Source of the DNA: a bacterium
GTDB lineage: Bacteria > Electryoneota > Electryoneia > Electryoneales > Electryoneaceae
Length of the DNA stretch: 64,000 nucleotides
Reading direction: 5' to 3'
NCBI GenBank assembly: GCA_963669175.1
Contig: OY769902.1
Location: 2,368,001-2,432,000 of the forward strand
The notes below the pieces were generated by a model that saw only the letters and a program-made list of their open reading frames with translations, ran no database searches and was not told where the DNA came from. A program made the position numbers and the translations under genes. This document shows positions 37,521 through 54,430 of the stretch, piece after piece. How positions within the stretch are numbered: position 1 is the stretch's first letter; each line of letters opens with the position of its first letter.

Positions 37521-37658
37521 AATGCCTCTCCATTGTACCAGGTAAAGATGTGAATGAAAAGGTAAATGAATTCTGTCGTCGTTGCGAATCCGAACATTTC
37601 ACGAATAGCGTTTTGAAATGTGATTTTCAGGCGTTGACAGAATAGTATACGCTGTTCT

Positions 37659-37928
37659 TCAATCGCTTGTTTTGCCTGCTGAATTGTGCTTCGCAGCGTT
37701 GGCTGCTTGTTTCATCTGCCACAAACCTTTTTCAATCTCATTGTAATTCTCAAGGTCTGAATATATCAATGGAGTGGCGTCTATGCCTTTAGCCTGGTTG
37801 TTACGGAGCACGACGCCAGCGGCGCCCCCGGGAAAGGGAGCATAGGCAAGTGTGAGGAAGAAAAGGGCGAACCCTATAAAAGCAATGATTCCCCTGATCA
37901 CACGTTTTTGTACAGAAGATTTCGCCAC
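37659..37928 (-). CDS. Small single-TM hypothetical protein downstream of YeiH
   Basis: 89-aa ORF with one hydrophobic helix and an IDATPLIYSD motif, 68 bp downstream of the YeiH gene. Confidence 0.65.
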   Translation of the reverse strand: MAKSSVQKRVIRGIIAFIGFALFFLTLAYAPFPGGAAGVVLRNNQAKGIDATPLIYSDLENYNEIEKGLWQMKQAANAAKHNSAGKTSD

Positions 37929-37996
37929 AATATGTCCAGTGTATGTTTACCCATCAACAGCCGGTATAATTGATAATGGGGGTCAGAATCTGTGTA

Positions 37997-39511
37997 TCAG
38001 AAAACCTTCGGGAACAGGATTCCACCAAACGCCAGCCATGCAGCGAACACCGTCAGAACCAGGTTGAAGGTCTGGCCGACAACATACAGAATCAATGGCT
38101 TTCCGCCGGCCAACTGGCTACCCAGTTCACGGAAATTGGATTCCAGTCCGATCGCAACAAACGCAAGGCAGAACAGCCAGCCACGCAAGACCTTGGTCAC
38201 CGGTTTGATGAAACGGGCATTGACAACCTGGGCGCCACGCTGCATGCGTGACACTTTCGGCTTTGCAGGTTCAGTTACAGCCTGTACAGCAACTTCCGTT
38301 TCTTTTGCTTTAACAACTTCAGGTGTAGCAATTGCCTGACTCCCTGCGCCTTCTTCATGTTCGTCGATAGCGCCGGATTCCTGTGCAACTGCAGGCGCTA
38401 CGATGGAGAAAGACGGCTTAACGCTTGCTGTCTCGCTACTTTCCTTCCCAAAAATGGGTACCAGGACAAAGGAGAACAGGAGGGAGGCGCCAACAAACCC
38501 AAGGATAAATTTCGGGAAACGATACCAGATTTCCATCGCGTTCGGTTTGGGGCCGCAGGGATCACGTTCAACTTTGGTACACCAGTATATCGCGACGACA
38601 AAGGCAACCACACCTATCAGGACATTCTGTATCATCTTTACAACCGCAGCGACCTTTTCCGCTTCCGGTCCCAGCACATTTCCGGCAGCAACAACAGCGC
38701 CGGTCGCATCAATGGTCCCACCAATCCAAGCGCCCCCGATGATAGGATCCATGCCGAGTAACTTGATGAAAACAGGCATGAATACCATCATCAGCACGGT
38801 AAAGATGAGTGTAATACCAACTGCAAGCGTTAGTTCTTCCTTCTTGGCTTTTGCCGCGGCTGCGGTGGCAATGGCGGCTGATACACCGCATACCGATGTG
38901 GCCGCGGCAATAACGATCACCAGCGCTTTACTCGGGATCTTCAGGACTTTTGTACCAAAAAGGAACATGAAGATGACAACAGTGGGAGTAACGATCCAGG
39001 CAACCACCAATCCCGGCCCACCCAGTTCCAGTATCTTGCTGAAGAGAATCTCGGCGCCGAGCAAAACAAGACCGGTCTTAATATATAATTCACTTTTTGC
39101 ACCGGCCAAGAGCCATTTCGGCGTACCCACCGTATTGGAAATGAGCAGGCCGATAGCTAAAGCCCAGAAAGCATAGCCAATACCATAGGCTTTTATCTGT
39201 GCTTGGTTGGCAAACAGGTATGAGATTACGGAGATAAGAAAGACAATGGTATATCCTCCCAGGAATCTTCCTGCCTTTTCTCCCATGGCCTTTATCCCGA
39301 TGGCATTGAGTAAGCCAAGCCCAACAAACAGGATAAGAGTTGGAAGCAGGGAGCCGCTGGGGAAGACATCAAGAGGATTTGCTGTCCATCCCCCAAGCTT
39401 GGGGACGCGAGTAATAACTCCAAACACGGCGGCGGCGATCATTACTAATCCGAACCAGATTGCCCACCAGTCTTCGTGTTTGTAAAGATCCGACCAACTG
39501 GATTTCGCCAT
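37997..39511 (-). CDS. YeiH/UPF0324 family (putative sulfate/sulfite exporter) transporter
   Basis: EDWWAIW, EL.IKTGLVLLGAE, SVCGVSAAIA, GAWIGGTIDATGAV, KMIQN, RFPKF, WLFCLAFVAIGL, GQTFN. Confidence 0.9.
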   Translation of the reverse strand: MAKSSWSDLYKHEDWWAIWFGLVMIAAAVFGVITRVPKLGGWTANPLDVFPSGSLLPTLILFVGLGLLNAIGIKAMGEKAGRFLGGYTIVFLISVISYLFANQAQIKAYGIGYAFWALAIGLLISNTVGTPKWLLAGAKSELYIKTGLVLLGAEILFSKILELGGPGLVVAWIVTPTVVIFMFLFGTKVLKIPSKALVIVIAAATSVCGVSAAIATAAAAKAKKEELTLAVGITLIFTVLMMVFMPVFIKLLGMDPIIGGAWIGGTIDATGAVVAAGNVLGPEAEKVAAVVKMIQNVLIGVVAFVVAIYWCTKVERDPCGPKPNAMEIWYRFPKFILGFVGASLLFSFVLVPIFGKESSETASVKPSFSIVAPAVAQESGAIDEHEEGAGSQAIATPEVVKAKETEVAVQAVTEPAKPKVSRMQRGAQVVNARFIKPVTKVLRGWLFCLAFVAIGLESNFRELGSQLAGGKPLILYVVGQTFNLVLTVFAAWLAFGGILFPKVF

Positions 39512-39563
39512 TTTCCCCCTCCTTCAGCTCGCCCTGGAGCCATGGAACCAGCGTAAAACTGTT

Positions 39564-39581
39564 TGGTGAAAAAATGCACAA
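39564..39581. promoter_or_regulatory. Candidate Rex operator
   Basis: TGGTGAA-AAAA-TGCACAA against the consensus TTGTGAA-N4-TTCACAA, in the yeiH/dsrA divergent region. Confidence 0.5.
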
Positions 39582-40107
39582 TCCTGCATGACCGCCAGAG
39601 AGTAGTATATACTCCTCAAAGGTATAGGATAACAGCTCTGGAGGCAAGGGAAGGGCCTGTAATTGGCATGAATGTAACAAATGGTTTAAAACCAATGACG
39701 ACCAAACTGGAGTTGGAAGTCAGGAAAGCCTTATTTTCAGTGGTTACAAGACTTGAAGCAGATTAGTATTTCAGAGTTTTACTCTCCTAATCGGGAAAAA
39801 TTTGGCATGTGCTGTCAGAAAATGTTACCTTCACTTTCCCTGAGGCCCCTCAAGGAAGTCTTTCGGAATCGGGGAGTTGCGAGTTCGATTGGATAGAATC
39901 GGAGTTATGCTTCCCGAATCGTTCTTTTTTTCACAAGAACGTGGGCGAAGAGGCAGGTTTTGAGGGGGCGGCATTCAGACCAGAAAAGACACAAACGATA
40001 GAACGTAGGACCAAACTTCATGTAATGGGAGCGTACGTTTGTTGCAAGTCGCAAGTCTTGTGGACCTGTAATAGCTGATACGCGACGAAACGGCTTTAGG
40101 AGGAACT

Positions 40108-41301
40108 ATGCCAGAGGAGTACAAGACCCCGAAGCTTGACGAGCTGGAAAAGGGGCCGTGGCCCAGCTTCGTGAAGGAGATTAAGCTGGCGGCAAAGGAC
40201 AACGCGATGTCAAACGCGTTGCTCGGGCTGCTCGAGCGCTCCTACAACGAGCGGATTGGCCATTGGAAGCATGGCGGTATCGTAGGCGTTATGGGATACG
40301 GCGGAGGCGTGATCGGTCGTTACACCGACCTGGCGGAAGAATTCCCGGATATCTCCCACTTCCATACCCTGCGTGTCAATCAACCTTCCGGTTGGTTCTA
40401 CACATCTGAAGCATTGAACACCTTGTGCGACATCTGGGACAAGCATGGCAGTCACCTGACGAACATGCACGGTTCCACTGGCGACATCATTTTCCTCGGC
40501 ACCACAACCGAAGAACTTGAGCCGACCTTTGCAGACCTGACCAAAGCCGGTTTCGACCTTGGTGGTTCGGGTTCCGATATGCGTACCCCAAGCTGCTGCG
40601 TCGGCCCAGGCCGTTGCGAATGGGCTTGCTACGATACCCTGCAGCGCTGCTATGATATCACCATGCGCTATCAGGACGAACTGCACCGCCCGGCATTCCC
40701 GTATAAGTGGAAATTCAAGTTCTCCGGCTGCCCGAACGATTGCGTTGCTTCCATTGCACGTTCCGACATCTCCATCATCGGTACCTGGAAAGACAGCATC
40801 AAGATTGACGAAGCCGAAGTCAAGGCCTATGCTGATGGCGGCTTGGACATCTTCAACGATGTCGTACTGAATTGCCCGGCAAAATGCATGAAATATGCTG
40901 ATGGCAAGCTTGAGATCGACAACAACGACTGCCGTCGCTGCATGCACTGCCTCAACGTAATGCCGAAAGCCCTGCGTCCTGGCGACGAAAAGGGTGCGGT
41001 CATTCTCATCGGCGCCAAGGCCCCGATCGTGGAAGGCGCATTGCTCTCCAGCGTCATCATTCCGTTCCTGAACATTGATGACGAAGAAGAATTCGAAGAC
41101 TTCTGCGATCTCATCGAAGAAATGCAGGATGTCTGGTGCGAAGAAGGCAAGAACCGTGAACGTGTGGGTGAGTTCATCCAGCGTGTCGGTATGAGCAACT
41201 TCCTCGAAGCCGTCGGCCTCGAGCCCATACCGGAAATGGTCGCCTATCCGCGTGACAACCCCTATATCTTCTTCGAACAGGAAGAAGAAGAAGAAGAGTA
41301 A
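40108..41301 (+). CDS. dsrA: Dissimilatory sulfite reductase alpha subunit
   Basis: [56 protein letters not shown]. Siroheme/FeS motifs CVGPGRC and [15 protein letters not shown]. Confidence 0.99.
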
Positions 41302-41363
41302 ATCGTACGGGGCGACATTACCAGTTGTTGCAGAAAAGAACCACATGCAGATAGGAGTGTAAG

Positions 41364-42449
41364 ATGGCTGAAGCCATGCAAGAACGCATTACCGATATCG
41401 GCCCGCCGGATTATAAGAAGTTCCTTCCTCCGGTGATCGAGAAGAATTACGGCCAGTGGAAGTACCATGAAATCCTGGAACCGGGGATCATGGTTCACGT
41501 AGCGGAGTCCGGTGACAAGCTCTATACCGTTCGTTGCGGTTCCCCCCGTCTGGTCTCGACCAATTCAATCCGTTTCTACACGAGCATTGCAGATAAATAT
41601 TGCGACGGTTACCTGCGTTTCACCAGCCGCCACAATGTTGAGTTCTTGACCACAGTGGAAGAGAATGCCCAGAAGATCAAAGAAGAGATGACTGCTTACG
41701 GTAACCCCGTTGGTGGTATGGGCAATTCCATCACCAGTATCGTTCACACCCAGGGTTGGGTCCACTGCCACAGTGCAGCCACGGACGCTTCCGGTGTTGT
41801 GAAGTCGGTCATGGACGAATTGTTTGAGTACTTCTCTGAAATGAAGCTTCCGGGCAAGTGCCGCATCGCGTTGGCGTGCTGCCTGAACATGTGTGGTGCG
41901 GTCCACTGCTCCGACATCGCTATTCTGGGTGTCCACACACGTCCGCCGCGCATTGATCACAACAACCTGAACAAGCTGTGTGAAATCCCGAACGTGTCGG
42001 CTTCCTGCCCGACCGCCGCGATTCGCCCGGCGACAGTCGACGGCAAGCCGTCCGTCGAAATCATTGAAGATCAGTGCATGTTCTGTGCGAACTGCTTCAC
42101 CGTCTGCCCGGCCATGCCTATGGCAAATCCGGACACTGACGGTGTTTCAATCTGGGTTGGTGGCAAGGTTTCGAACGCCCGTTGCGAACCGAAGTTCTCG
42201 AAACTGGCCGTTCCGTTCATTCCGAACAACCCGCCGCGTTGGCCTGAGGTGACCGGCGCTGTCAAGAAGATCGTGGAAGTATGGGCTGCGAATGCAAGGC
42301 CGTACGAACGTATCGGTGAATGGATCGATCGTGTTGGCTGGCCGCGTTTCTTCAAGCTGACCGGCTTCGAATTCCAGAAAGAACACATCGACGACTTCAA
42401 GTACGCTGGTCTGAGCTTCAAACGTAGCGCCCATATCACCCACGAGTAA
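41364..42449 (+). CDS. dsrB: Dissimilatory sulfite reductase beta subunit
   Basis: [63 protein letters not shown]. Confidence 0.99.
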
Positions 42450-42464
42450 AGAGGAGGTGATACC

Positions 42465-42716
42465 ATGGCGATGACAGTAGAACAGATCGCTGATGCCATG
42501 TATAAGCAGGTCGCAGAAGCCCAGGAAATGGGCAAGAAGCTGAAGCCCGGCGACCTGACCAAGCTGATGCTTGGCGCTTATGAAGAAGATGGCGTCGACA
42601 AAAAAATGTGCAAGGCCGCGATCAAGGAACTGGTGAACAGCGGACGTTGCGTCTACACCTATTTCGGTGGCAGCTATCTTGAACTGCCCCGTAAAGAAGG
42701 CGCATCCAACGACTGA
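42465..42716 (+). CDS. dsrD: DsrD (DsrAB activator)
   Basis: 83 aa directly after dsrB. KLKPGDL...CKAAIKELVNSGRCVYTYFGGSY winged-helix pattern. Confidence 0.85.
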   Translation: MAMTVEQIADAMYKQVAEAQEMGKKLKPGDLTKLMLGAYEEDGVDKKMCKAAIKELVNSGRCVYTYFGGSYLELPRKEGASND

Positions 42717-42781
42717 TACCAGTCCGTAAGTAATTGATAACGGACTTGTTAAGATTGTTGATTTCGCAGATTGTGTCTGCT

Positions 42782-42809
42782 GCCGCTCGCTTGAGATCAA
42801 GCGAGCGGC
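42782..42809 (+). other. Strong GC hairpin between dsrD and dsrL
   Basis: GCCGCTCGCTTGA-ga-TCAAGCGAGCGGC, with no U-tract. Confidence 0.7.
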
Positions 42810-42914
42810 GGTCGCACATTCTGGACTTCGATACCGCTGGGGGGCGGTGGGCCGCGGAAAGGTACGGTCTAACCTGACCGACGTTTCATCGCTATTGAAC
42901 TAGAGGAACGCCAG

Positions 42915-44657
42915 ATGGCAATCGCAAGAAAAGAGAAGAAGAAACTCAAGACCAAGAGTCTTGGATCCGGCTCCGGTGCGTCGACACGGTCGATGTCCGA
43001 TCTGCGACCGGATCATGTGGAAAAGCTCGCCCCCTGTATGTCCAACTGTCCCCAGGGAACTGCCGTTCGGGACGCGTTCAATATCATCCGGTTGTACGAG
43101 AAGCACGGAAAGACCAAAGAAGAGGCATACACCGACGCTTTTTACAAGTGGACAGAAAACAACCCGATGCCGGCGGTGTTGGGTCGTGTTTGCCCCCATC
43201 CGTGTGAGATCAATTGTAACCGGATTCATCGGACCGATTCGAATGAACCGGTTTCGATCAACCAGATTGAACGGTTCATTGGTGACTGGGCGCTGGAACA
43301 GAAGCTTCCGTTGGTGAAACGTGACGATGCGGAAGAGTACAGTGAAAAGGTTGCCGTGATCGGTTCCGGTCCTGCCGGACTGGGAGCTGCGTTCCATCTC
43401 GCAAAGCGTGGATACAAGGTGACGATTTTTGAAGCCTTGAAGAATCCGGGCGGTATGCTTCGGTATGGTATCCCGGCTTATCGTCTGCCTCGCGAGGTCA
43501 TCAGTGCGGAAATACAGCGCATTCTGGACCTGGGTGTCGAGCTGAAAACCGAAACCATCATCGGTAAGGATGTCCCTTACGACAAGCTCACGGAAGAGTT
43601 TGACGCCGTGTTTGTCGGTATCGGGGCGCACAAGGGCAAAATGCTGCGTGTTCCCGGTGAAGATGCGGACAATGTCCTGTCCGGTGTTGAGTTTCTGAAC
43701 CAGTTGAATTCCGGAAATCCGCCTGAAATCGGTGACAAGGTTGTCGTGGTCGGTGGTGGTGACTCGGCGATGGACGCTGCACGTTCCTGTCTGCGGATGG
43801 GCGCGGATGTGACCGTCGTTTACCGTCGTACCCGTAACGAGATGCCTGCTATTGAAGAGGATATCGTTGGCGCCGAAGATGAAGGCATCAAGTTTAACTT
43901 CCTTTGCACGCCGGTTGAAGTGTTCAAAGATGATGATAACAAGGCCACGAGCATCAAGTGCCAGAAGATGGAACTTGGTGAACCGGATGATTCCGGTCGT
44001 CGGCGCCCAGTCCCCATCGACGAATTCTTCGATCTGGACATCACATTCCTGATTCCGTCCATCAGCCAGGAACCCGACTTTGACGGGCTGGAGAACCTGA
44101 AGGCCGGACCACGTGAATGGGTCCATGCGGACGAGTTCATGCAGTCGACAGACTGTGACTGCTTCTTCCTCGCCGGTGGTGACGTGCTGGATCTTGGCCT
44201 GGTTACAACTGCGTTGGGCCAGGGCAAGCGCGCTGCACAGACCATTCACCAGCGTTTCCGCGGGCTTCCGATTCAGTTTGATTCGAAGCCGGAAGTTATT
44301 GAACCGAAAACCTGGAAGAGCGATGTGGATGGCACCGAGCACCACAACCTGCTTCCCGGTTACTTCGCCGAAACAGAACGTGTTGAAAAGCATGAACTGC
44401 CGGTTGAAGATCGTTTCAAGGATGCGGAAAAGGAAATCGTGGAGACCATCACCGAAGATGAGGTCTTCGCGGAACTTGCACGCTGTCTGAGTTGTGGGAA
44501 GTGTGTGGAATGCGGCCAGTGCTGGACGTATTGCCAGGACGCTTGTGTAGTGAAGCCTTTGAAGCCGGGCGAGAAGTACAAGTTCAAGCTCGAAAACTGC
44601 AAAGGTTGTGGCAAATGCGAGGAAGTGTGCCCCTGTGGGTACATTGACATGAAGTAG
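42915..44657 (+). CDS. dsrL: DsrL iron-sulfur flavoprotein (DsrL-2-like, YRR motif)
   Basis: N-terminal PC..CP and GRVCPHPCE..CNR. FAD GSGPAG. NAD(P) GGGDSA followed by VVYRRTR. C-terminal CLSCGKCVECGQC and CKGCGKCEEVCPCG ferredoxin. Lies inside the dsr operon. Confidence 0.9.
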   Translation: MAIARKEKKKLKTKSLGSGSGASTRSMSDLRPDHVEKLAPCMSNCPQGTAVRDAFNIIRLYEKHGKTKEEAYTDAFYKWTENNPMPAVLGRVCPHPCEINCNRIHRTDSNEPVSINQIERFIGDWALEQKLPLVKRDDAEEYSEKVAVIGSGPAGLGAAFHLAKRGYKVTIFEALKNPGGMLRYGIPAYRLPREVISAEIQRILDLGVELKTETIIGKDVPYDKLTEEFDAVFVGIGAHKGKMLRVPGEDADNVLSGVEFLNQLNSGNPPEIGDKVVVVGGGDSAMDAARSCLRMGADVTVVYRRTRNEMPAIEEDIVGAEDEGIKFNFLCTPVEVFKDDDNKATSIKCQKMELGEPDDSGRRRPVPIDEFFDLDITFLIPSISQEPDFDGLENLKAGPREWVHADEFMQSTDCDCFFLAGGDVLDLGLVTTALGQGKRAAQTIHQRFRGLPIQFDSKPEVIEPKTWKSDVDGTEHHNLLPGYFAETERVEKHELPVEDRFKDAEKEIVETITEDEVFAELARCLSCGKCVECGQCWTYCQDACVVKPLKPGEKYKFKLENCKGCGKCEEVCPCGYIDMK

Positions 44658-44726
44658 AACCTGATTCGATAGAAGTTAGGTAAAATGACGTCCGTATAAG
44701 GGCGCCAAAGCGGAGGAGTACTACTC

Positions 44727-45050
44727 ATGGCTATGTTTTTTGAGTATGGTGACGGCAAAAAAGTCGACATCGACGAGGACGGCTTCATTCAAGAACCAGA
44801 TAACTGGAATGAAGAACTCGCGGTTGCACTGGCTGAAACCGAAGGCGTGACCGAGATGACTGATGAACACTGGCGTCTGGTCAACTATCTGCGTGACTAC
44901 TACCAGCAGTACGGGATTGCCCCGATGGTCCGCAAGCTTTGTAAAGAGACCAAGATTCCTCTCAAGCGTGTTTATGAGCTGTATCCGTCAGGCCCAGCGA
45001 AGGGCGCTTGCAAGGTCGCCGGCCTGCCGAAGCCAACCGGTTGTGTCTGA
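44727..45050 (+). CDS. dsrC: DsrC sulfur carrier
   Basis: DEDGF...HW..V.YLR.YY...AP. C-terminus GPAKGACKVAGLPKPTGCV retains both cysteines (CX10C). Confidence 0.97.
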   Translation: MAMFFEYGDGKKVDIDEDGFIQEPDNWNEELAVALAETEGVTEMTDEHWRLVNYLRDYYQQYGIAPMVRKLCKETKIPLKRVYELYPSGPAKGACKVAGLPKPTGCV

Positions 45051-45065
45051 TCAACTGGCGCTGAC

Positions 45066-46457
45066 ATGATATGTCCATCAATCGCGGTGGCCGGTCTGGG
45101 GGGAGACAGTGGTAAAACTCTTGTCTCACTCGGACTGGCCGCCGCGTTTTCCTCTCGCGGTTTCCGGGTCGCCCCGTTCAAGAAAGGCCCGGACTATATC
45201 GACGCTGCCTGGTTGAGCGCCGCCGGGAAACGTACGTGCCGCAACCTCGACACTTTCCTCATGGATGAAGATGTCATCCTTGATACCTGGCAACGCGAGT
45301 GCGAAGACGCCGATATCGCCATCATGGAAGGGAATCGTGGCATCTTTGACGGTATGGATGCTGCGGGAAGTCACTCTACAGCCACCCTGGCAAAGCTGGT
45401 TGGGGCGCCGGTCCTGCTGGTTATCAATGTGACCAAGATGACCCGCACCGTTGCCGCTATTGTCAAAGGTGTGCAGGCGCTTGATCCTGAATTGGATATC
45501 CTGGGCATTGTGCTGAACCGGGTCGCAGGCAAACGTCACCGTGAAGTTATAACCGAAGCGATCAGGATTGAAACCGGACTGCCGGTATTGGGCGCGATCC
45601 CCAAGCTCAAGCTGGATATGATTCCGGGCCGCCATCTCGGACTTGTCACGACCGATGAGCACCCGGACGTCGCCCAGGCCATCCGGAATGCCCGCGATGT
45701 TGCGCTGGAACACCTGGCTATCGACAGGATCGAAGTAGAACTGCGGCAACGCCCTGCTTCCATGATGCTGTCGCAATTGCGAGACAGTGCTTCAATTGCA
45801 CGTTATCAGCGTCCTGTTTGCCGTATTGGTGTGGTACGAGACGCGGCCTTTCCTTTTTACTACCCGGAAAATCTGGAAGCGTTGGAAGATGGCGGCGCGG
45901 AACTGATATATATCAGTGCGTTGAAGGATAAATCGCTGCCTGAAAACATTGATGCGCTCTATATCGGTGGCGGTTTTCCGGAAACACATTTGCCGCAACT
46001 TGCAACCAATAGGGAGTTTCTCGATTCACTGCGAGAAGCTTCGTTGGACCGGAAGTTGCCTGTTTACGCTGAATGCGGCGGGTTGATGCTGTTATGCCGC
46101 AGTCTTGAGTATAAGGGGCAGACGTGGGAGCTGGCGAATGTCTTCCCGGTTGACATCGGCTGGTCGAAAAAACCACGCGGGCATGGCTATTCGGTTGGCG
46201 TAATTGATGGTGAGAACCCGTATTATCCGGTTGGGACAGAGATCAAGGGCCATGAATTCCACTACTCGTTCATCGATAAGATGGACAATACCGCGGCGGA
46301 TGGATCTGTTGTCAACCTTCAACGTGGCAGTGGAATCGGCGATAAACGGGATGGACTGTACACAGCGAATACCCTTGCGCTGTATACGCATGTTCATGCT
46401 GCCGGACTGAAGGAATGGGCGCAGGGGATGCTGAAGGCTGCGAAATTAAGAGGGTAA
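45066..46457 (+). CDS. dsrN: DsrN siroheme amidase (cobyrinate a,c-diamide synthase family)
   Basis: GDSGKT, FKKGPDYID, EGNRGIFDG, RHLGL, FYYPEN, YAECGGLM, GHEFHYS, YTHVH. Lies in the dsr operon. Confidence 0.92.
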   Translation: MICPSIAVAGLGGDSGKTLVSLGLAAAFSSRGFRVAPFKKGPDYIDAAWLSAAGKRTCRNLDTFLMDEDVILDTWQRECEDADIAIMEGNRGIFDGMDAAGSHSTATLAKLVGAPVLLVINVTKMTRTVAAIVKGVQALDPELDILGIVLNRVAGKRHREVITEAIRIETGLPVLGAIPKLKLDMIPGRHLGLVTTDEHPDVAQAIRNARDVALEHLAIDRIEVELRQRPASMMLSQLRDSASIARYQRPVCRIGVVRDAAFPFYYPENLEALEDGGAELIYISALKDKSLPENIDALYIGGGFPETHLPQLATNREFLDSLREASLDRKLPVYAECGGLMLLCRSLEYKGQTWELANVFPVDIGWSKKPRGHGYSVGVIDGENPYYPVGTEIKGHEFHYSFIDKMDNTAADGSVVNLQRGSGIGDKRDGLYTANTLALYTHVHAAGLKEWAQGMLKAAKLRG

Positions 46458-46461
46458 AAGA

Positions 46462-46745
46462 TCTTCCTCGCAAGAATTTATGCGCATTTTGAGGTAGGAG
46501 CAGCCCTTCCAAATAGTACATATGGAGTGTTTCGAATGCTTAAGACTAACGGAACACGCTACTTTTTCTACTGATCGCTTATGCTGTGTTGTTCAAGGCT
46601 TCATTTTACACATTGCTGATTTTTGTTTTAAATCACGCCAGAATGCCATCCATGTGATTTCTCATCAGTTTGAAAAAGATCTTCGTTGGCTTCAGACAGT
46701 TGTTCCCTACCTTTCGGAACCAATAGCTATTTGCTTCTTCAGTAT
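46462..46745 (-). pseudogene. Decayed ISL3-family transposase 3' end with terminal inverted repeat
   Basis: Minus-strand reading WFRKVGNNCLKPTKIFFKLMRNHMDGILA*FKTKISNV*NEALNNTA*AISRKSSVFR*...LEGLLLPQNAHKFL resembles the ISL3 C-terminus (SNG..E.LNN..K...R...GFR). It has several in-frame stops. Confidence 0.7.
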
Positions 46746-46820
46746 ATTAGCTATCCAACAGTAGTCTTGTTTTAAAACAATTATACAAGCAGCGTTGTAC
46801 ATTCAAGAATTACGAGTGTT

Positions 46821-49800
46821 TCAATCAGTATAACCGATTGCTATGTTTACATCATTGATGTCTACCTTTTGCTGGTGTTGAAGAAGGCTGATCGCTTTCG
46901 CAATACGTTCCTCAACATTCACACCTGTTCGTTGAAAACCGAATAGCTTTGCAGTTGCACGGATTAGCTCGTCCTTTGGAGCGCTAATCTCTTCATGAAG
47001 GATATATAGTATTGAATTGGCGATTTCCTCGACAGGAAGGTCGCTTGCATCCCTGAAGGATAGCTTGTCCTTCCCAGGAACACGGAAATCTCCATAGTTC
47101 CTTTTACTTGCCTCTCCATTCCAAAGAAATTCTCCGCTGTCTGTTTTCTGGACATAGACCTCGTTATGAGGAATAAGCTTGTGAACATATTCCACGGCTT
47201 TGGAGGTAACGCGTCCGAAATTCCAGAAGCTTGTTACTCGTCTCGCAGTAAGATTGAGACTGACCGGGGCTTCCTGTTGAACAACCTCAAGAATTTTCAG
47301 CCGGATCAGGTTTCGGTTATGGTCGAAGTAGAATTCATCAGGTTGAGCCACAATTGCGTTCACTGGCACAGGTTTGTATACAGGAAGATGGGGTGCCTTA
47401 GGGGTTGTTTCGCGGTTCTGCTCGCATTGGAAATGCTTTGTGGTTGCTTCGTTGTTGTCTGTCCTCATTCCATTTGCATGTGGTTGTATTGCTTTGGGAA
47501 CATCATTGCGAGACAGTTCTGCCTGCTCAATGGCATCCACAAGCTTTTGCATCTCATGCTGTGGGTCATTCCACCAATCGGAGGACCAGATACGGTGCAG
47601 CTTCCACCCAAGGCCACGAAGGACGGATTCACGGAGCTTATCGCGGTCCCTGGCAGTCTTGGCACGGTGGTACATGGCTCCATCACATTCTACACCAAGC
47701 AGGTAGCGGCCAGGGGCTTCAGGATCAACAACCGCAAGGTCAATACGGTATCGCGCTGTACCAACTTGTTTGTGGACCTGGTAACCGCGTCGGTCCAACT
47801 CGTTGAATACCTCCTCTTCAAAAGGCGAGTCAAAATCAGCTTCCAGGTCGAGCTGAACAGCTTCCGCGATTGCTGATGTACCACGCTGAGCGTAGTTCAG
47901 GAAAAGCTTCAAATCCTTCACACCTCTTGCCTGGGTACGTGCGAGGTCAATCTGATCAGCTTGAAGAGTAGAAAAGACCAATACTTCTCGCCTTGCTCTG
48001 GTAATAGCAACATTCAGTCTACGCTCGCCACCATCCTTGTTCATCGGTCCAAAGTTCATCGATACATTTCCAGCTAAATCTGGACCATAGCAAATGGAAA
48101 ACAGAATCACGTCTCGTTCGTCGCCCTGAACATTCTCCAAATTCTTGACGAAAACAGGTTCTACGCAACTATCTCCGAAGAAGGCTTCCAAGGATTCATC
48201 TTGACCACGTTCGATATCAAGGAGATCTTCAATCAGCTTCTGCTGTGCCTGACTGAAGGTGACAATGCCGATGGATGATTGAGAAAGCTTCTCATCATGA
48301 AGGCGCTGTATCACCTCACATACGACCGCCTTCGCTTCCGCTCGATTTGTTCTCGATTTGCCTTTATCGTAAACACCTTCTGGGACGTGAATCCATTTCA
48401 CCCCCATTCCGGTAAGATCGGAGGAGGGGAAGGTGAAGAGACGATTCCCATAGTAGTTGTAATTGCTGAAGGTGATCAGACTTTCATGACGGCTGCGGTA
48501 GTGCCAGTCCAGCGTTCGCAGCGGAATACCAGCACCGAAACATTCATCAAGGATACTCTCGATTCCCGCATCAAGGTTAAGGTCCTCATCAACGTCTTCC
48601 TCATCCGAACGGTTGAAGAAATTGGTTGGGGGAAGTTGTTTAGGGTCGCCGACCACCACCGCCTGTTTACCTCGAGCGATTGCCCCAATCGCATCCCATA
48701 CAGGAATCTGGGATGCCTCGTCAAAAACAATCAGGTCAAAGGGTGGATATTGTGAATCGAGATATTGGGCAACTGAAATCGGACTCATGAGGAGGCAAGG
48801 TTTCAATTTGGGGAGAAGACCGGGGATACTCTGAAACAATTTACGGACGGCCATGTGTGCCCGCCGTTTGTTGATCTCACGCTTCAGAATTCCCAGTTCG
48901 CTTGTCGGCATGTCAAAGTGAGAGTTGCGCGGAATCTTCTCTCCTAGTTTTGCCCTTATTAGTGCTTTTGTCAGGTCCTCGTATTTGTCGTCTATTTCTC
49001 TAAACTTCTGAATCCTTTGTTCGTGTTCAGCGGAGGAGAACTGACGAAGGACTGATTCGGAGTCAACGACGGCATTATACCACCACTCCGTATAACTTCT
49101 CTCGAAAACCCGGCGAAGCTGGGATGTTTGAATCTTGCCCGATTCATAAGCCTCGACAATCATAGACAGGTCAAGCGATATGGCTTCTTCACGCTTTCTG
49201 AGCCAGGCAGTCCAATTACGCAGTTGGTTGATGGATTTGCTCCAAAGATTGGTCTGATGCAGATGGTTTTCAATCATCCCTGTCGCGGTATTGTCACCCC
49301 AGGCTAATTCAGGAATGATGGTGGCGAGATCGATTAAAGAAGTACGCGCTTCAAAGAAATCAGTCCACGCCTGATTAAACGTCTTCAATCGGTTATAGAG
49401 CCCCCCACCCGCTCTCAGTTGATCATGTCCTTCGGTTAGAATTCTTGCCCATTTTATACGCAGATCAGATGCTTGGCCGAAATCATCTCCTGCCAAACGA
49501 TGTACGTGACTACGCAGGATATCGATCCAACAAAGAATGGATTCGACTTTATCCCAGTCTGCATCTCCATTAAGCCAATGGGATCCCAGTACTTCATTTG
49601 CTTGCACGCTGACACTATTGAGGAGATGCTGTTCACGGTGGTACTCAATAGCATCATTTAGTAGCGATTTGATCTCAACTTTCTTTGGTTTCCTTCCATC
49701 TATCGCGACTTCTGCCAATGCTTTCCGGATCGGACGCCGTTTCCACCAAGCGACCAACGCCCAAGAATCTTCCGCTTGATGTAATTGGTCCAAGTGGGCT

Positions 49801-52781
49801 TCTAAGGGTAGGCCAATAATATCATCTCTGAATCGATTCCGCACTTTAGTCCGGATCACGTCCCGGGCACGGCCATGCGTTAACCAATGTGAGATTGCTT
49901 CCTTCAACTCTGACCAAGTCGATTGAGTCAGCAAGACAGGCCGGAATGGCGGTGGATCAATAAACAGGGACGTCACTTGATCAGCAACTTTGAATTCATC
50001 CAGTGACCAGGCATTTGAAGAAACCGGGAAGAATTGGTCATCTATGGCGGCTGCAGCGGACTTCAATGCTTCACATTTGTTCTTGAATTCCAGCAGTGCT
50101 CGTTCAAGACCATCCTGCCAATGTGCAGACCAGTCAGAGAATCTCATACCAAACCAGGGATGATCGTACGGTCCACCACATGCCTTACCGGTTACAGCCA
50201 TACCATCAATACATTCGCGAAGTACGGTCAACTTTTGCCGGTTGAGTGAGTCTCGTAACACCCAGTCAAAAGGTATCCTGGGTACATCCCTCAATCCGAT
50301 CAAACGAGAAACTGCTTGAAATACGGACTCTCCTGTCGTTCGGATAGTGTGCAAGGCGTGCACATAGGTGTTCAACTCTGCACGTTTCTTTTCAAGGCGT
50401 TTGGCTTCTTCTTCCCAAATCTCCTGGCTGAACTGGGTAATAGCGTTTAAAGAGTCCGAAAGCTGACTGATGACTGATTTCTTGTCTGCTTTGTTTGAAT
50501 GAATTTCAAGGCAAAAGTCACCCAGACCGATCTGGTTCAGGCGTCTCTGGACAACGCTTAATGCGGCCATCTTCTCCGAAACGAACAGGACAGTATTCCC
50601 GATTGTCAGCGAGTGTGCGATGATGTTGGTAATCGTCTGAGATTTCCCCGTCCCGGGAGGTCCCTCCAGAACGAAGCTCCGACCTTCAGCTGCTGCAAAC
50701 ACTGCCGCAAGCTGAGAGGAGTCCGACTCAAGCGGGCAAAATGTTTCGGTCGGCTTTCTGTCATCGTCAAGTGTTTCTGGATCGGGAAACTCGCCGTCGG
50801 GATCATAGGCTTCACCTGGATGATTCACAAGATGATCAACGACATTGTTGTGTAGCAGGTCAGCTGATCGTTCTGCAATGTCACGCCACATCAGGAATTT
50901 TGCAAAGGTGAAGAAACCAACTTGGGCTTCTTTTATCACTTCCCAACGATCAATGTCTTTTACCTTCTCTTGGATCGTGCGGAAGATGAGGGGAACATCC
51001 AAACCAGATTCATCCAAGGGAAGAGGGTCCATCCCTGTGATTTCAATTCCGAAATCCTTTTTCAGCAGTTCGAGGAGGGTCACATTGATCCGTGGATCAT
51101 CAGTGATAAGCTGCAGTGTGTATCCCTGTAAAACTGATTCGCGCTTCAACTCGATGGGTAGCAGAAGCAGAGGGGCTTTGCGTGGTGTCTCACTCCCCTC
51201 TGTCTCATACCAGGATAAAAATCCCAGCGCTAGATAAAGTGCGCTCGATCCACCTTCTTCAAGCGCTGTTCGCGCGGACCTGAAGACATCAACGAGACGA
51301 CTCTTTAATTCTCCCTCTGTCAGATCGAAGTGCAGCCTCTTGGCCTGCATCTCCTCCCTAAGAGCCTTGTTAACCGCCTCATCTCCAGTACGTTGGGCGT
51401 GAACGGTTGCTGATCTTGGATCATTTATGCTGAACTCACGTAGTTTTGGTAGCAACGAGAACTTGGCGCCATCCGCCAGCATATCCTCGAGGGTTGGAAG
51501 ATCGGGACAGAGCAGAGAAAGTGTCTTCTTAGTTGGCTTAAAGTTAAGCAACCTGTTGCGAAGAGTGAGGTCAAGTAGTTTCCGTTGCCAACGATCAAGA
51601 CGCGATGCCGCTGTTTCCGTCTCTTCGACTTTACCAGTGAATTCAGTCTGGCTTGGGATGGAAGGGAGTTTCGGAGCTTGGACGCTCTGCGCCTCATTAG
51701 GCTCAGCAGAAGAGGTGGAATCAACTCTTTCTGGCAGTGGACGAACCTGAGACTTTCGTGATCGCCTGATATCAATGACGCACAGATATTTATCAACATC
51801 CTCCAGACATTTTCTTGCTTCTAAGGCAGTATGGTCAAATTCGGGGCTGGGACGTGATGTGGCAAATGTCGGGTCGAATACCACTATCTCGCGCAGATCA
51901 ACTCGCTTTCGTAGACGGATCGGGTCGAAATCAACGGGCTCATCAAAACACGCATCGTTCAGCCATGCTCCAGTAAAAGCATGTCCCTGTACAAGGACTA
52001 CCAGAGCATTCAAGCCTGCCTGTTCAAGGCATCCAGCTGCCAACAACGCTATGTCTAGGCAAGTAGCTCTTCCTGCTTCAGTGATCCGATCAGGGAAGCG
52101 AACTCGCTGCCCCTCCTCCTCAAAGCTTGCTGGTGGATTTGAATAGGTTAATCCCTGTGATCGAATAGCTTCATAAATCGCGGCAACAGTCTTGTAAGCA
52201 TTTTCAGGGTTCTGAGTCTGGTATCCTGTAAGTGAAGGATCCCCCGTCCACTGTTCCAGAATAGATGCCGTCTTTGTAAGGAAGGTGTCAATTGCCGGGT
52301 GATTGGGTAGCACGAAAGCTGCAAGGATTGAAGGAAGTGAACTAAGACCACCCCATTCATCACGTGCCAGCAGGTCTACTGGCTCCGTAGTCTCAAGGAT
52401 TAGCTCCTCACTTGCCTTGATCGCAAAATGAAGAGTGCCATGCATGCGCTCCGTTAGATTCCCAAGAAACTGAGGTGAAAGCTGCAAGTCGATAGTTTGA
52501 ATATTGAAGGTGTCCCCTGCGCCCAATTGCATAAGGTGGGTGGACCAGGGGGAAGCGTACTGCGGATCTGGATTGATAGCAAGAGTGATATCGGTGAGGA
52601 GTTGGTTGGTGTGGTTCGTTACGTGGAGGGATTTAATCACTGGGACATCATTCTGCTGCAAGGCGAAATTGATCTTCCTGTCAAGCTCAACCTCGAGCGA
52701 GACGGGGAAGGAGTCACCCTCAATGTGGATTGCTAGTTCTGAAGTCTCGAAATCATTCCCTAGGACTTGATAGTTGTCCAT
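46821..52781 (-). CDS. DUF4011 - SF1 helicase - Vsr/MTES_1575-like nuclease - DUF3320 protein (Hhe-like anti-phage candidate)
   Basis: DUF4011 WQRKLLDLTLRNRLLNF. Walker A EGPPGTGKSQT, FDEASQ, GDPKQLPP, HYRS, VQGDERD, RLNVAITRAR. Nuclease SPFEEEV...RIDLAV...VECDG..YH...RDRD...GW..HRIWS.DW. N-terminal TCLD...GHA motif. Confidence 0.9.
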   Translation of the reverse strand: MDNYQVLGNDFETSELAIHIEGDSFPVSLEVELDRKINFALQQNDVPVIKSLHVTNHTNQLLTDITLAINPDPQYASPWSTHLMQLGAGDTFNIQTIDLQLSPQFLGNLTERMHGTLHFAIKASEELILETTEPVDLLARDEWGGLSSLPSILAAFVLPNHPAIDTFLTKTASILEQWTGDPSLTGYQTQNPENAYKTVAAIYEAIRSQGLTYSNPPASFEEEGQRVRFPDRITEAGRATCLDIALLAAGCLEQAGLNALVVLVQGHAFTGAWLNDACFDEPVDFDPIRLRKRVDLREIVVFDPTFATSRPSPEFDHTALEARKCLEDVDKYLCVIDIRRSRKSQVRPLPERVDSTSSAEPNEAQSVQAPKLPSIPSQTEFTGKVEETETAASRLDRWQRKLLDLTLRNRLLNFKPTKKTLSLLCPDLPTLEDMLADGAKFSLLPKLREFSINDPRSATVHAQRTGDEAVNKALREEMQAKRLHFDLTEGELKSRLVDVFRSARTALEEGGSSALYLALGFLSWYETEGSETPRKAPLLLLPIELKRESVLQGYTLQLITDDPRINVTLLELLKKDFGIEITGMDPLPLDESGLDVPLIFRTIQEKVKDIDRWEVIKEAQVGFFTFAKFLMWRDIAERSADLLHNNVVDHLVNHPGEAYDPDGEFPDPETLDDDRKPTETFCPLESDSSQLAAVFAAAEGRSFVLEGPPGTGKSQTITNIIAHSLTIGNTVLFVSEKMAALSVVQRRLNQIGLGDFCLEIHSNKADKKSVISQLSDSLNAITQFSQEIWEEEAKRLEKKRAELNTYVHALHTIRTTGESVFQAVSRLIGLRDVPRIPFDWVLRDSLNRQKLTVLRECIDGMAVTGKACGGPYDHPWFGMRFSDWSAHWQDGLERALLEFKNKCEALKSAAAAIDDQFFPVSSNAWSLDEFKVADQVTSLFIDPPPFRPVLLTQSTWSELKEAISHWLTHGRARDVIRTKVRNRFRDDIIGLPLEAHLDQLHQAEDSWALVAWWKRRPIRKALAEVAIDGRKPKKVEIKSLLNDAIEYHREQHLLNSVSVQANEVLGSHWLNGDADWDKVESILCWIDILRSHVHRLAGDDFGQASDLRIKWARILTEGHDQLRAGGGLYNRLKTFNQAWTDFFEARTSLIDLATIIPELAWGDNTATGMIENHLHQTNLWSKSINQLRNWTAWLRKREEAISLDLSMIVEAYESGKIQTSQLRRVFERSYTEWWYNAVVDSESVLRQFSSAEHEQRIQKFREIDDKYEDLTKALIRAKLGEKIPRNSHFDMPTSELGILKREINKRRAHMAVRKLFQSIPGLLPKLKPCLLMSPISVAQYLDSQYPPFDLIVFDEASQIPVWDAIGAIARGKQAVVVGDPKQLPPTNFFNRSDEEDVDEDLNLDAGIESILDECFGAGIPLRTLDWHYRSRHESLITFSNYNYYGNRLFTFPSSDLTGMGVKWIHVPEGVYDKGKSRTNRAEAKAVVCEVIQRLHDEKLSQSSIGIVTFSQAQQKLIEDLLDIERGQDESLEAFFGDSCVEPVFVKNLENVQGDERDVILFSICYGPDLAGNVSMNFGPMNKDGGERRLNVAITRARREVLVFSTLQADQIDLARTQARGVKDLKLFLNYAQRGTSAIAEAVQLDLEADFDSPFEEEVFNELDRRGYQVHKQVGTARYRIDLAVVDPEAPGRYLLGVECDGAMYHRAKTARDRDKLRESVLRGLGWKLHRIWSSDWWNDPQHEMQKLVDAIEQAELSRNDVPKAIQPHANGMRTDNNEATTKHFQCEQNRETTPKAPHLPVYKPVPVNAIVAQPDEFYFDHNRNLIRLKILEVVQQEAPVSLNLTARRVTSFWNFGRVTSKAVEYVHKLIPHNEVYVQKTDSGEFLWNGEASKRNYGDFRVPGKDKLSFRDASDLPVEEIANSILYILHEEISAPKDELIRATAKLFGFQRTGVNVEERIAKAISLLQHQQKVDINDVNIAIGYTD

Positions 52782-52810
52782 TACCTAAGCCTCCATGCGT
52801 CATGTTGGTT

Positions 52811-54122
52811 CAGAACTGTCCGGTTTAACAGATCATTTTTCTTGCTGACGTAGTGTCAGCCATATTCCGTTTTCGTTTTGTTCTTTGAGATTCTTGCCAC
52901 GCATGGTTTATCGGCGTTTGCATCAACGCATGGACAGCCAGGAACACCATCAGCCGATGAGCAGTGATTGCTTGATTGGGTGCTTGTTGCTCGATGATTC
53001 GCACCATCAGGTAGGCGATCATGGCGATCCAGACCTGGATCAACACTGCATTCATGTCGGTTCCCAGGTAGGTCTTGATCTTCAGGTTCTGCTTGATCCA
53101 TTTGAAGAACAGTTCGATCTGCCAACGTTCCCGGTACAGGTCGGCAATCACCAGCGCATCCACATCAAGCAGGTTGGTCAGGAACTCAAGATCGTTGCCG
53201 GTTTCGGGATCGACGAAGCGGATCAGGCGCAACGGTTCGGGGCAGTTAACGCCGCAATCGCCGTCGAGATAACCAATCCAGTCACGTCGAACACCTGCTT
53301 TTCGGTCGCAGTGACGTCGTTCTTCATACCCGAAGCCGATGTTACGCTTGATCCGCGTGACAAAGAAAACACCTTGGTTGCATAACTGGTAGAACCAAGC
53401 GCTATCGAAGTACCCTTTGTCGAACAAGACAGTATCGCCTGGATGGAAGCGGAACTTTCGTCCCTGGGGCATATCGTGGCCTCGCGCGGCGGTCACCCTG
53501 ATGACACTTGGGATGTAGCCATCATGATCGAGCTGGGTGTGCAACTTCATCCCGCCCTTGCGTGTTCTGTATTCAGCCCAGCCGAACAGGGTCTGACACA
53601 AGGGGATCACAGTGCTGTCCAAGCTGAACAGTTTTCCGGGCACATCGAACGTATGACGCGGAAATTGATCCTTGACTGTTGCGAACAGGCTGTAGAACAG
53701 ATCGCGGTAGAACATCCAGGGAACACGAAGATTTGCCTCTGCAAGAGTAGAACGGGGCGTCTGGCGTATTCCACAGCGACGTTGTACAGGTGTCAAAGCT
53801 ACCGTCGCCTGCTCAATCTGGCGGAGCGATGGCAGTCCGGCCAGTTGCGCGAAAAGCATAACCGCGAAGTGCGCGCGGGCCGTCATCTTCCGAACACCTT
53901 TGTTGACCTGATACTGCGTAGCAAGATTATCAAAGAGCACAGGTTCAATCAGGGCAAGCATTTGCCCCAGAACAATGTTACCTTTCGCCATGGCTTGGTC
54001 CTCCGGTCGTGGTGAGAAAACTTGTGCAAAAGCAATCTCAACACACGAACCTCTGGATTCAAGCCATTATTATTTCAAGAGCTCCATGGCTCCATATGCA
54101 AATCACGAACCGGACAGTTCTG
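52811..54122 (-). mobile_element. Complete IS4-family insertion sequence (1312 bp)
   Basis: 15-bp terminal IRs CAGAACTGTCCGGTT (52811-52825) and AACCGGACAGTTCTG (54108-54122). 9-bp target duplication ATGTTGGTT at 52802-52810 and 54123-54131. Confidence 0.95.
52825..53991 (-). CDS. IS4-family DDE transposase (DUF4372 N-terminus)
   Basis: FAQL...SLR.I, RSTLAEAN, LDST, KLH, FDKGY, FFVTR.K, YRERWQIELFFKWIKQNLKIK (YREK motif). Confidence 0.96.
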   Translation of the reverse strand: MAKGNIVLGQMLALIEPVLFDNLATQYQVNKGVRKMTARAHFAVMLFAQLAGLPSLRQIEQATVALTPVQRRCGIRQTPRSTLAEANLRVPWMFYRDLFYSLFATVKDQFPRHTFDVPGKLFSLDSTVIPLCQTLFGWAEYRTRKGGMKLHTQLDHDGYIPSVIRVTAARGHDMPQGRKFRFHPGDTVLFDKGYFDSAWFYQLCNQGVFFVTRIKRNIGFGYEERRHCDRKAGVRRDWIGYLDGDCGVNCPEPLRLIRFVDPETGNDLEFLTNLLDVDALVIADLYRERWQIELFFKWIKQNLKIKTYLGTDMNAVLIQVWIAMIAYLMVRIIEQQAPNQAITAHRLMVFLAVHALMQTPINHAWQESQRTKRKRNMADTTSARKMIC

Positions 54123-54430
54123 ATGTTGGTTACACAATTCTGTCAATGGTGGTTGTCTTTTCTGTATGATATATTTTGATAGCATTATCATACTGAAAAT
54201 ATCTGAGAATTTAAGTACTTGACAGTATATTCAACAATATGGCTTTGCATAATTGTATTCGGTTTTGCTCAATTTGAGAGCTCAAGCAGCTTGGTGAATT
54301 AGGAATATAATTAGATTGCTTTTCTTTCTAGCTGCTCACAACTATTTGTGCAAGATATTAGCTGTCAATACGCTCCCGGAAGTCTTTGGCCTCTGGGTGA
54401 TCTTGACAGCCGAAACGCACCAATCGTCTT

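Follow-up and report, generated by a model that had tools for sequence, protein, structure and literature searches.

The stretch of DNA analysed here is a 64-kb window (bases 2368001-2432000 of contig OY769902.1), and positions refer to this window unless the contig is named. Open reading frame (ORF) listing and family scans revealed six co-directional genes of the dissimilatory sulfite reductase (dsr) system on the + strand between 40108 and 46457, in the order dsrA, dsrB, dsrD-like, dsrL, dsrC and dsrN, with the following features (lengths in amino acids, aa):

40108..41301, + strand: dsrA, dissimilatory sulfite reductase alpha subunit, 397 aa (TIGR02064, 564.3 bits; cut-off 392.85)
41364..42449, + strand: dsrB, beta subunit, 361 aa, with NIR_SIR and Fer4 domains (TIGR02066, 495.4 bits; cut-off 341.5)
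42465..42716, + strand: dsrD-like gene, divergent winged-helix protein, 83 aa (named from position, size and predicted fold)
42915..44657, + strand: dsrL type 2, NfnB-like flavoprotein, 580 aa (NF009410, 553.2 bits; cut-off 516)
44727..45050, + strand: dsrC with both redox-active cysteines, 107 aa (PF04358, 130.2 bits)
45066..46457, + strand: dsrN, CobB-type a,c-diamide synthase, 463 aa (NF002204, 412.5 bits, cut-off 254; TIGR00379, 386.7 bits)

Every gene listed in an initial annotation made from the letters of the DNA (dsrABD, dsrL with a YRR motif, a two-cysteine dsrC, and dsrN) is thus present, in its place and on the + strand. For dsrD, position, size and predicted fold agree with the name, but a curated family match was not obtained. 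Family scans also bore out that dsrEFH, dsrT and dsrMKJOP are not encoded within the window.

Both DsrAB subunits pass curated equivalog models, and DsrC likewise scores above its curated cut-off. The best solved matches of DsrA are chains from A. fulgidus (539 bits) and Desulfovibrio (512 bits), and no oxidative-type DsrAB structure is held in the PDB. Across the 80 nearest DsrA loci, drawn from all phyla, identity of DsrA ranges from 66 to 94% (one locus, at 74%, is titled Chocolate Pot), and a DsrD-like gene is found in all those long enough to show it. The assignment of DsrAB to the reductive type is supported by this DsrD-like linkage, by the absence of DsrEFH and by identity to lineages called reductive in print. 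In a concatenated DsrAB tree (FastTree, 76 sequences, midpoint-rooted, without outgroup), loci of the host phylum fell into three clades, named here after the GTDB families of that phylum (f1-f9, f1 being the family of the window). Family f1 forms one clade adjoining Ignavibacteria- and Kapabacteria-titled loci, f3 and f9 form a second, and f2 a third, near Planctomycetota-, Gemmatimonadota- and Acidobacteriota-titled sequences. DsrAB appears not to follow the phylum's own tree, and a dsrAB history that departs from organism phylogeny is a pattern already described in general.

The C-terminus of DsrC reads CKVAGLPKPTGCV and contains Cys95 and Cys106. The stretch GACKVAGLPKPTGCV, which includes Cys95 and, as the penultimate residue, Cys106, can be aligned residue for residue to a solved DsrC, chains of which match the window's protein at 121-131 bits; the two conserved cysteines of the C-terminal arm mark a catalytic DsrC as opposed to a TusE/RspA-like protein. 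The last gene owes the name dsrN to its position in the cluster, a position kept in related loci, and encodes a presumed siroheme amidase.

The DsrL protein displays the NfnB/GltD-like architecture with Fe-S domains at both the N-terminus and the C-terminus, comprising Fer4_20, Pyr_redox_2 and a C-terminal 4Fe-4S dicluster domain (Fer4_21). Its best solved relatives are NfnB-type modules (292-335 bits), whose YRR aligns with residues 303-305 of the window's protein (Y303-R304-R305, in the stretch VYRRTRNEMPA). Alignment with 84 DsrLs extracted from dsr loci showed YRR in all 85 proteins, lengths of 552-585 aa and no insertion in the window's DsrL relative to the others, insertions of roughly 30 aa being a feature of DsrL-1A. 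The type used for comparison is DsrL-2, or subcluster 2C in the scheme of Diao et al. 2023 (PMC10591310). Cysteines 41, 45, 93, 97, 101, 524, 527, 530, 533, 536, 540, 562, 565, 568 and 572 are invariant in this set, and an SxxRP motif is conserved at 28-32 (Ser28 and Arg31 each in 84/85, Pro32 in 85/85). According to Loffler et al. 2020 (PMC7596348), DsrL-2 is defined by YRR, the Desulfurella DsrL-2 uses NADP(H) only, a property tied to this motif, and DsrL-2 proteins accompanying reductive DsrAB carry Ser/Thr and Arg at two cluster ligands of NfnB, namely the positions of Cys39 and Cys42. The SxxRP motif fits this description, with the proviso that the NfnB alignment begins downstream of it: the HMMER alignment to T. 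maritima NfnB starts at DsrL residue 40 (chain residue 46), after S28 and R31. Hence, of the NADPH-coupled DsrL-2 with YRR proposed in the initial annotation, the motif is there as in all dsr-linked DsrLs, and the use of NADPH is suggested by the behaviour of relatives.

When 1.84 billion representatives were searched with DsrL, 4168 proteins matched at E <= 1e-30, the highest identity among them being 52%. In a midpoint-rooted FastTree of 74 full-length representatives, which carry no type names, and 35 dsr-linked DsrLs, the window's DsrL lies inside a dsr-linked clade from Kapabacteria-, Zixibacteria- and Acidobacteria-titled records, grouping with f1 and then, successively, with f2, Kapabacteria-titled proteins, and f3 and f9. 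Three representatives are placed outside the dsr-linked clade, two of them without YRR and the third with a 30-aa insertion.

The small ORF that starts 15 bases after dsrB resembles DsrD in the functional sense, being about 80 aa long, lysine-rich, located after dsrB and devoid of cofactor-binding cysteines. The protein has no Pfam or NCBIfam match, even at E 10, and the 83-aa ORF was not picked up by a genome-wide scan with the DsrD family PF08679. Of the 80 related loci, 73 yielded an intact homologue immediately behind dsrB; K24, K27, K33, K46 and K50 are invariant or nearly so, and the one or two cysteines present are not invariant. Among 8000 candidates scored, at least 6913 homologues (90%-identity clusters) were found at E <= 0.001, and the 120 of them that were listed have no Pfam domain and, where the source gives a name, are called 'hypothetical protein'. 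The AlphaFold2 model (pLDDT 91.4) predicts three helices and a beta hairpin in a winged-helix fold. Foldseek gave no match in the PDB at E <= 0.001 (best E 0.022), and the best VIA-align matches were winged-helix domains (Z up to 10.0, root-mean-square deviation 2.2 A over 72 residues), with Z-alpha domains reaching Z 7.8. The winged-helix fold is a common one, and the best 50 VIA-align rows did not include the solved DsrD entry. Of 30 named matches in the ESM Atlas, 24 were PF08679 clusters (best score 0.94, 176 shared features), which serves as a lead and not as a test. The wing carries the motif Y-T-Y-F-G-G-S-Y, in which Y64, Y66, G68 and G69 are invariant; for the DsrD of Desulfobacterota, Ferreira et al. 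2022 (PMC8794893) give YWSSGSTT. Since dsrD was detected in the host phylum, AABM5-125-24, with the METABOLIC hidden Markov models (Diao et al. 2023, PMC10591310), the 83-aa protein is treated here as the DsrD of the literature and not as a member of PF08679 as modelled.

Structural modelling of DsrA, DsrB and the DsrD-like protein together yielded a complex score of 0.75, against 0.00 for the best of three controls. This mark is reached by 116 of 157 solved complexes and by 2 of 215 mismatched pairs, a calibration that is approximate here (own alignments, three chains). Contact agreement between runs was at least 83% and partner pLDDT at least 84. On the small protein, the modelled contacts involve the invariant stretch 64-70 together with residues 23-32 and 50-60; on the reductase they fall on DsrA (54-66, 154-157 and 190-199, many of them invariant) and on only a few DsrB residues (206-207 and 246-249). 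The model supports binding of the DsrD-like protein to DsrAB. A solved complex of DsrAB with DsrD is not known to us, and the profile search of PDB sequences with the DsrD-like family brought up none. Ferreira et al. 2022 (PMC8794893) give the position of DsrD on DsrAB as unknown.

The genome is a single contig of 5,447,365 bases (95.9% complete, 0.36% contamination) with one dsrA over the cut-off. A search for the remaining genes of the pathway, which the initial annotation had recommended, located sat, aprBA, two HdrA-like genes and a complete dsrMKJOP on this same contig. A cluster of the two HdrA-like genes, sat, aprB and aprA lies about 168 kb upstream of dsrA. Sat scores 373.9 bits (cut-off 322.95), and AprB and AprA exceed dissimilatory equivalog cut-offs with 200.8 bits (135.65) and 832.5 bits (641.75), respectively. 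About 258 kb downstream of dsrN, an IS200/IS605 transposase gene is followed by a TPR gene, dsrT and dsrMKJOP. Each of the five proteins of dsrMKJOP exceeds its equivalog cut-off, and the name dsrT is applied by position to a 184-aa gene with a RsbRD_N domain (59 bits). No DsrE-family gene turned up in this 95.9%-complete genome, as judged from PF02635 (PF04077, DsrH, was not searched), in line with the dsrEFH-free reductive system that had been anticipated. Judged by these family matches, sat, aprBA, qmoAB-like genes, dsrMKJOP and the dsr operon make up a complete gene set for dissimilatory sulfate reduction of the reductive type. A second sat-like gene is present at 148073-149176 (+) of the contig (576-aa open frame, 284 bits, below cut-off) and is perhaps a fused assimilatory Sat.

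The cluster probably forms the catalytic core operon in a pathway of dissimilatory sulfate/sulfite reduction of the reductive type, with an NADPH-fed DsrAB, and the sulfite or sulfate reducer proposed in the initial annotation is supported by the full reductive-type gene set. Published work on relatives points to the reductive direction, to the use of NADPH and to activation by DsrD. In such a pathway, sulfate would be activated by Sat and reduced by AprBA, with electrons passing through the QmoAB-like proteins. DsrAB would then reduce sulfite at its siroheme, presumably amidated by DsrN, with electrons that DsrL-2 would carry from NADPH through FAD and Fe-S clusters. The DsrD-like winged-helix protein would bind DsrAB and speed catalysis. 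The sulfur would be handed to the two DsrC cysteines as a trisulfide, which DsrMKJOP would reduce with quinol electrons.

Several observations weigh against this reading. The two HdrA-like genes are putative qmoA and qmoB by context only, their HdrA scores being below cut-offs, and qmoC was not found, though it was not specifically sought. The reductive assignment of DsrAB depends on its DsrD-like linkage, the lack of DsrEFH and identity to reductive lineages because the DsrAB tree comprises relatives only. As regards DsrD, PF08679 does not match the 83-aa protein and, among 45 family members, picked up three, the lowest E being 0.097, and a family profile run against PDB sequences found nothing below E 0.69 and no solved DsrD. 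DsrL-2 is also reported from sulfur oxidisers (Loffler et al., PMC7596348; Diao et al., PMC10591310). Finally, the genome encodes a heme-copper oxidase subunit I (379 bits), which leaves room for a host that is not strictly anaerobic.

The chief competing explanation, which we regard as unlikely, is disproportionation or facultative oxidation; it arises because the genome has an oxygen reductase and DsrL-2 does not specify a direction. The same genes would then run disproportionation or net sulfide oxidation in the manner of Desulfurivibrio or of cable bacteria: Apr/Sat would oxidise sulfur intermediates and DsrAB would reduce them, O2 would act as terminal acceptor, and the connection to the NADP(H) pool would be made by DsrL-2. 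Besides the oxidase, this explanation draws on the occurrence of DsrAB, DsrD and DsrL in disproportionators and of DsrL-2 in either direction (Ferreira et al., PMC8794893; Diao et al., PMC10591310), and on the low-oxygen genes of 75% of Electryoneota metagenome-assembled genomes (MAGs), with sulfide-oxidation genes cited for some (PMC10439189). However, no DsrE-family gene was found, the single NrfA-like match in the genome is weak and contains stops, DsrD is described as absent from known rDsrAB oxidisers by Ferreira et al. (PMC8794893), and DsrL-2 next to reductive DsrAB and DsrD has been proposed to indicate reduction (Diao et al. 2023, PMC10591310).

The distance of about 168 kb between dsrABDLCN and sat-aprBA could also suggest that the operon serves respiration of sulfite, thiosulfate or organosulfonates alone, with sat-apr being assimilatory or unrelated, and DsrAB and DsrD, along with DsrC and DsrL-2, are reported from organisms that do not reduce sulfate (Ferreira et al., PMC8794893). 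We consider this improbable: AprA (832.5 bits) and AprB (200.8 bits) pass dissimilatory cut-offs and are clustered with sat and the two HdrA-like genes, and assimilation could be covered by the second, longer sat-like gene. Sulfate/sulfite reduction is retained as the favoured function of the cluster.

The compact A-B-D-L-C-N order detached from MKJOP, singled out as unusual in the initial annotation, was compared with the 80 nearest DsrA loci and with 36 loci of the host phylum. L, C and N are all held by 55 of the 80 nearest loci, and canonical dsrM/K are adjacent in 45 of these 55 (32 N-L-C, 8 L-N-C, 3 with MK upstream, 2 L-C-N). In eight of the 55, canonical dsrM/K are missing although the sequence continues for 4 kb or more: one of these is the window's congener, and the other seven, of Kapabacteria or Tariuqbacter type, have N-L-C order and only a distant DsrK-like gene. 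Within the phylum, 29 of the 36 loci hold L, C and N, and dsrT-MK is attached in 24 of them: 14 with N-L-C order (f2, f3) and 10 with L-C-N order (f1). In two evaluable loci, those of the congener (G038) and of the Tariuqbacter genome, dsrT-MK is unattached, and three loci were too short to judge. The L-C-N order is confined, among the 36 phylum loci, to family f1, in which all 10 evaluable genomes outside the window's genus show A-B-D-L-C-N-TPR-T-M-K-J-O-P, and dsrT-MKJOP is detached from the operon in both genomes of the genus (2/2). The arrangement is consequently unusual within its family, as had been claimed, but MKJOP is encoded about 258 kb away. In the locus of Ca. Tariuqbacter arcticus, the gene between dsrN and dsrC encodes a homologue of DsrL that shares 50% identity with that of the window.

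The TPR gene (about 180 aa, contig 2672672-2673214) that adjoins dsrT in the window's genome encodes a protein 31-48% identical, over its full length, to the product of the ORF between dsrN and dsrT in 10/10 f1 relatives, so the break in the genus lies between dsrN and the TPR gene. Acidobacteriota-type loci have, between dsrN and dsrC, an ORF whose product is 23-31% identical to the same protein; to our knowledge, this TPR protein of about 180 aa from dsr clusters has no name. The IS200/IS605 transposase gene lies directly upstream of the detached TPR gene. In the congener, the DNA after dsrN differs, with its counterpart in the window's genome near 3.87 Mb, and dsrT-MKJOP is found on another contig. 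The detachment is a local rearrangement and not a missing complex, and we infer that mobile elements brought about the split. As a separate observation, a stretch of about 230 bases beside the congener's YeiH gene occurs in at least 13 places of the window's genome at 70-73% identity, probably as a REP-like dispersed repeat family, and a gene for a REP-associated tyrosine transposase lies near aprA.

The operon has a G+C content of about 0.54, which drops to about 0.475 immediately downstream, where the genes are of mobile or defence type, which might suggest a chimeric join after dsrN and hence an assembly artefact. Such an artefact is highly improbable. Two Logan contigs (35,943 bases, two runs of one sample) span 36000-55999 in one piece, thus covering dsrN and the downstream genes, with 0 differences. 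These runs may derive from the DNA's own source; the second genome of the genus, assembled from other data and also without dsrT-MKJOP after dsrN, provides independent support for the arrangement. A chimeric contig, contemplated in the initial annotation, is accordingly not what the data indicate.

The genes flanking the operon are the following:

37997..39511, - strand: YeiH/PF03601-family membrane transporter, divergent from dsrA (PF03601, 162.6 bits)
46821..52781, - strand: 1986-aa helicase-nuclease (DUF4011, AAA_11/12, REase_MTES_1575, DUF3320)
52825..53991, - strand: DDE (IS4-type) transposase beside the breakpoint region (PF01609, 98.3 bits; DUF4372)

Upstream, a homologue of YeiH (PF03601, 'putative sulfate exporter') adjoins dsrA in 9 of 13 family loci (58-77% identity in seven, 32% in two), and homologues with 28-32% identity lie directly upstream of dsrA in several Acidobacteriota- and Ignavibacteriaceae-titled loci. 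From its family name, the PF03601 protein is a possible sulfate or sulfite transporter of such dsr clusters. A sigma-70 promoter and terminator scan of 39400-47000 returned 4 promoter-like and 6 terminator-like sites, with no excess over shuffles, and an Rfam scan of the whole window gave no matches. Alignment of the 700 bases upstream of dsrA in the 13 family loci revealed no conserved leader, what is shared being a ribosome-binding site and a few short blocks. One such block, TCTTTCAC(G/A)A, is located about 150-200 bases upstream of dsrA in 7 of the 13 loci (39900-39960 in the window) and may be a regulator site.

Downstream of dsrN, an orphan 80-aa ORF precedes the 1986-aa helicase-nuclease gene and the DDE transposase gene. 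The 1986-aa protein, which combines a Upf1-like helicase (AAA_11/AAA_12) with a REase_MTES_1575 nuclease domain, stands where relatives have TPR-dsrT-dsrMKJOP and has no counterpart there in related loci. The segment 46821-53991 looks like a defence or mobile island inserted at the dsrT-MKJOP place of relatives. In a metagenome run of unrelated origin, pieces of the DDE transposase were covered at higher depth. In one run (X4), cover extended over parts of the stretch only. Elsewhere, the window includes two flagellin genes, Tig-ClpP-ClpX-Lon, and five proteins with the type IX secretion system (T9SS) sorting domain Por_Secre_tail, among them an S8 subtilase and FG-GAP/BNR propeller proteins. 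At 62686-63986 (-), a PAAR-like toxin domain protein (PF13665) adjoins a DUF3540 protein, both likely encoded by type VI secretion system cargo genes.

The two flagellins, the five Por_Secre_tail proteins and the one S8 subtilase agree with the flagellated host with T9SS-type proteases and propellers described in the initial annotation, and domain matches are likewise the basis on which it may be called protein-degrading. The host is a little-known, flagellated sediment bacterium from a candidate phylum of the FCB group (AABM5-125-24, Ca. Electryoneota) with T9SS-type secreted proteins, a placement that bears out the earlier view of an FCB host outside the Desulfobacterota. ClpX, with identities of 87, 72, 72, 71 and ~66% to five genomes, does not settle the taxonomy alone. 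The locus of an f9 genome is 100% identical over 11,797 bases to a record of Candidatus Tariuqbacter arcticus, an organism that Vigneron et al. 2023 (PMC10439189) placed with GTDB-tk in AABM5-125-24 (Ca. Electryoneota) of the FCB group. An earlier placement of the host in 'Calditrichota', based on the NCBI titles of two relatives, was replaced after this match. One f1 locus is 100% identical to a 'Calditrichaeota bacterium' record, and two f3 loci are 100% identical to 'Calditrichaeota bacterium' and 'candidate division LCP-89 bacterium' records.

Among the species representatives of the host GTDB phylum, 37 of 79 have dsrA, the window's own genome counted. Leaving that genome out, dsrA is found in 13/15 genomes of f1, 12/16 of f2, 9/9 of f3, 2/2 of f9 and 0/36 of f4-f8. 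According to Vigneron et al. 2023 (PMC10439189), 12 of the 28 public AABM5-125-24 genomes carry a dsr operon, 75% of public Electryoneota MAGs have genes for respiration at low oxygen, and sulfide-oxidation genes are cited for some Electryoneota; the words dsrL and dsrD are not used in the relevant sections of that article. Earlier, Vigneron et al. 2021 (PMC7887784) had described Sat, Qmo, AprAB and DsrAB in bins that were assigned to Calditrichaeota at the time. Diao et al. 2023 (PMC10591310) list AABM5-125-24 with a full Dsr pathway, dsrD and dsrL type 2, and the combination of DsrAB, DsrD and DsrL-2 in the host phylum is, according to that catalogue, already in print.

The observation made in the initial annotation is confirmed, as the genes with their family assignments, motifs and synteny are directly visible, and its interpretation is supported overall. 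Since both the phylum and the gene combination are already in published catalogues, the current picture of the sulfur cycle is unchanged. The value of the locus lies in a complete single-contig genome, with a full DsrAB-DsrD-DsrL-2 pathway, from a phylum known almost only from fragmentary MAGs. It provides a reference for testing NADPH-linked DsrL-2 as the long-sought electron donor to reductive DsrAB outside the Desulfobacterota, for annotating a divergent DsrD clade missed by Pfam, and for a change of dsr gene order within one lineage. Two modest leads emerge. One is a DsrD clade that lacks annotation and for which docking on DsrA is predicted, the other a genus-specific split of the dsr genes. 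They can be joined in a tentative proposal, possible rather than probable, in which the 83-aa proteins constitute a very large unannotated DsrD clade whose wing (Y64, Y66, G68, G69, S70) docks mainly on DsrA, and in which the operon of the genus needs co-regulation in trans. If this holds, the complex model would offer the first concrete testable location of the allosteric DsrD site (DsrA 54-66, 154-157, 190-199), and the catalytic operon, cut from TPR-dsrT-MKJOP in the genus, would have to be co-regulated with it in trans.

Among known systems, dsrABD of Desulfovibrio vulgaris shares with the window a small winged-helix gene after dsrB and, in the genome, a complete DsrMKJOP, and the solved D. 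vulgaris chains match the window's DsrA and DsrC at 512 and 121 bits, respectively. The D. vulgaris DsrD, unlike that of the window with its Y-T-Y-F-G-G-S-Y wing, matches PF08679 and has YWSSGSTT (PMC8794893). Desulfovibrio, as described by Loffler et al. (PMC7596348), has no DsrL, whereas the window does. The DsrL-2 of Desulfurella amilsii (Loffler et al. 2020) is similar to the window's in its NfnB-like core, C-terminal ferredoxin domain, YRR motif and association with reductive-type DsrAB; its biochemistry refers to the Desulfurella enzyme, whereas the window's DsrL is known from its sequence.

The clusters of Acidobacteriota and Gemmatimonadota contain, like that of the window's genome, DsrAB, a DsrD-like protein, DsrL with YRR, DsrN, a homologous TPR protein, DsrC, DsrT and DsrMKJOP. 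Their order is A-B-D-L-N-(TPR)-C-T-MKJOP or C-T-MKJOP-A-B-D-L-N, and their DsrL is 44-52% identical to the window's. These clusters are reportedly those of Hausmann et al. 2018 and Flieder et al. 2021.

The closest resemblance in gene content is to the dsrAB-dsrD-dsrL-2 clusters of the FCB group (AABM5-125-24/Electryoneota, Zixibacteria and Kapabacteria family UBA2268), which have the same set of A, B, D, L, C, N, T and MKJOP. These clusters, along with those of other phyla, were catalogued by Diao et al. 2023 and, for Electryoneota, by Vigneron et al. 2023. Across the loci compared, their DsrA is 63-94% and their DsrL 44-89% identical to the window's, with the same YRR and the same Fe-S ligands in DsrL. 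Two differences in arrangement set the window apart: f2, f3, f9 and most other phyla have the order A-B-D-N-L-C, whereas the window has A-B-D-L-C-N, and in the window's genus TPR-dsrT-MKJOP lies about 258 kb away from the operon.

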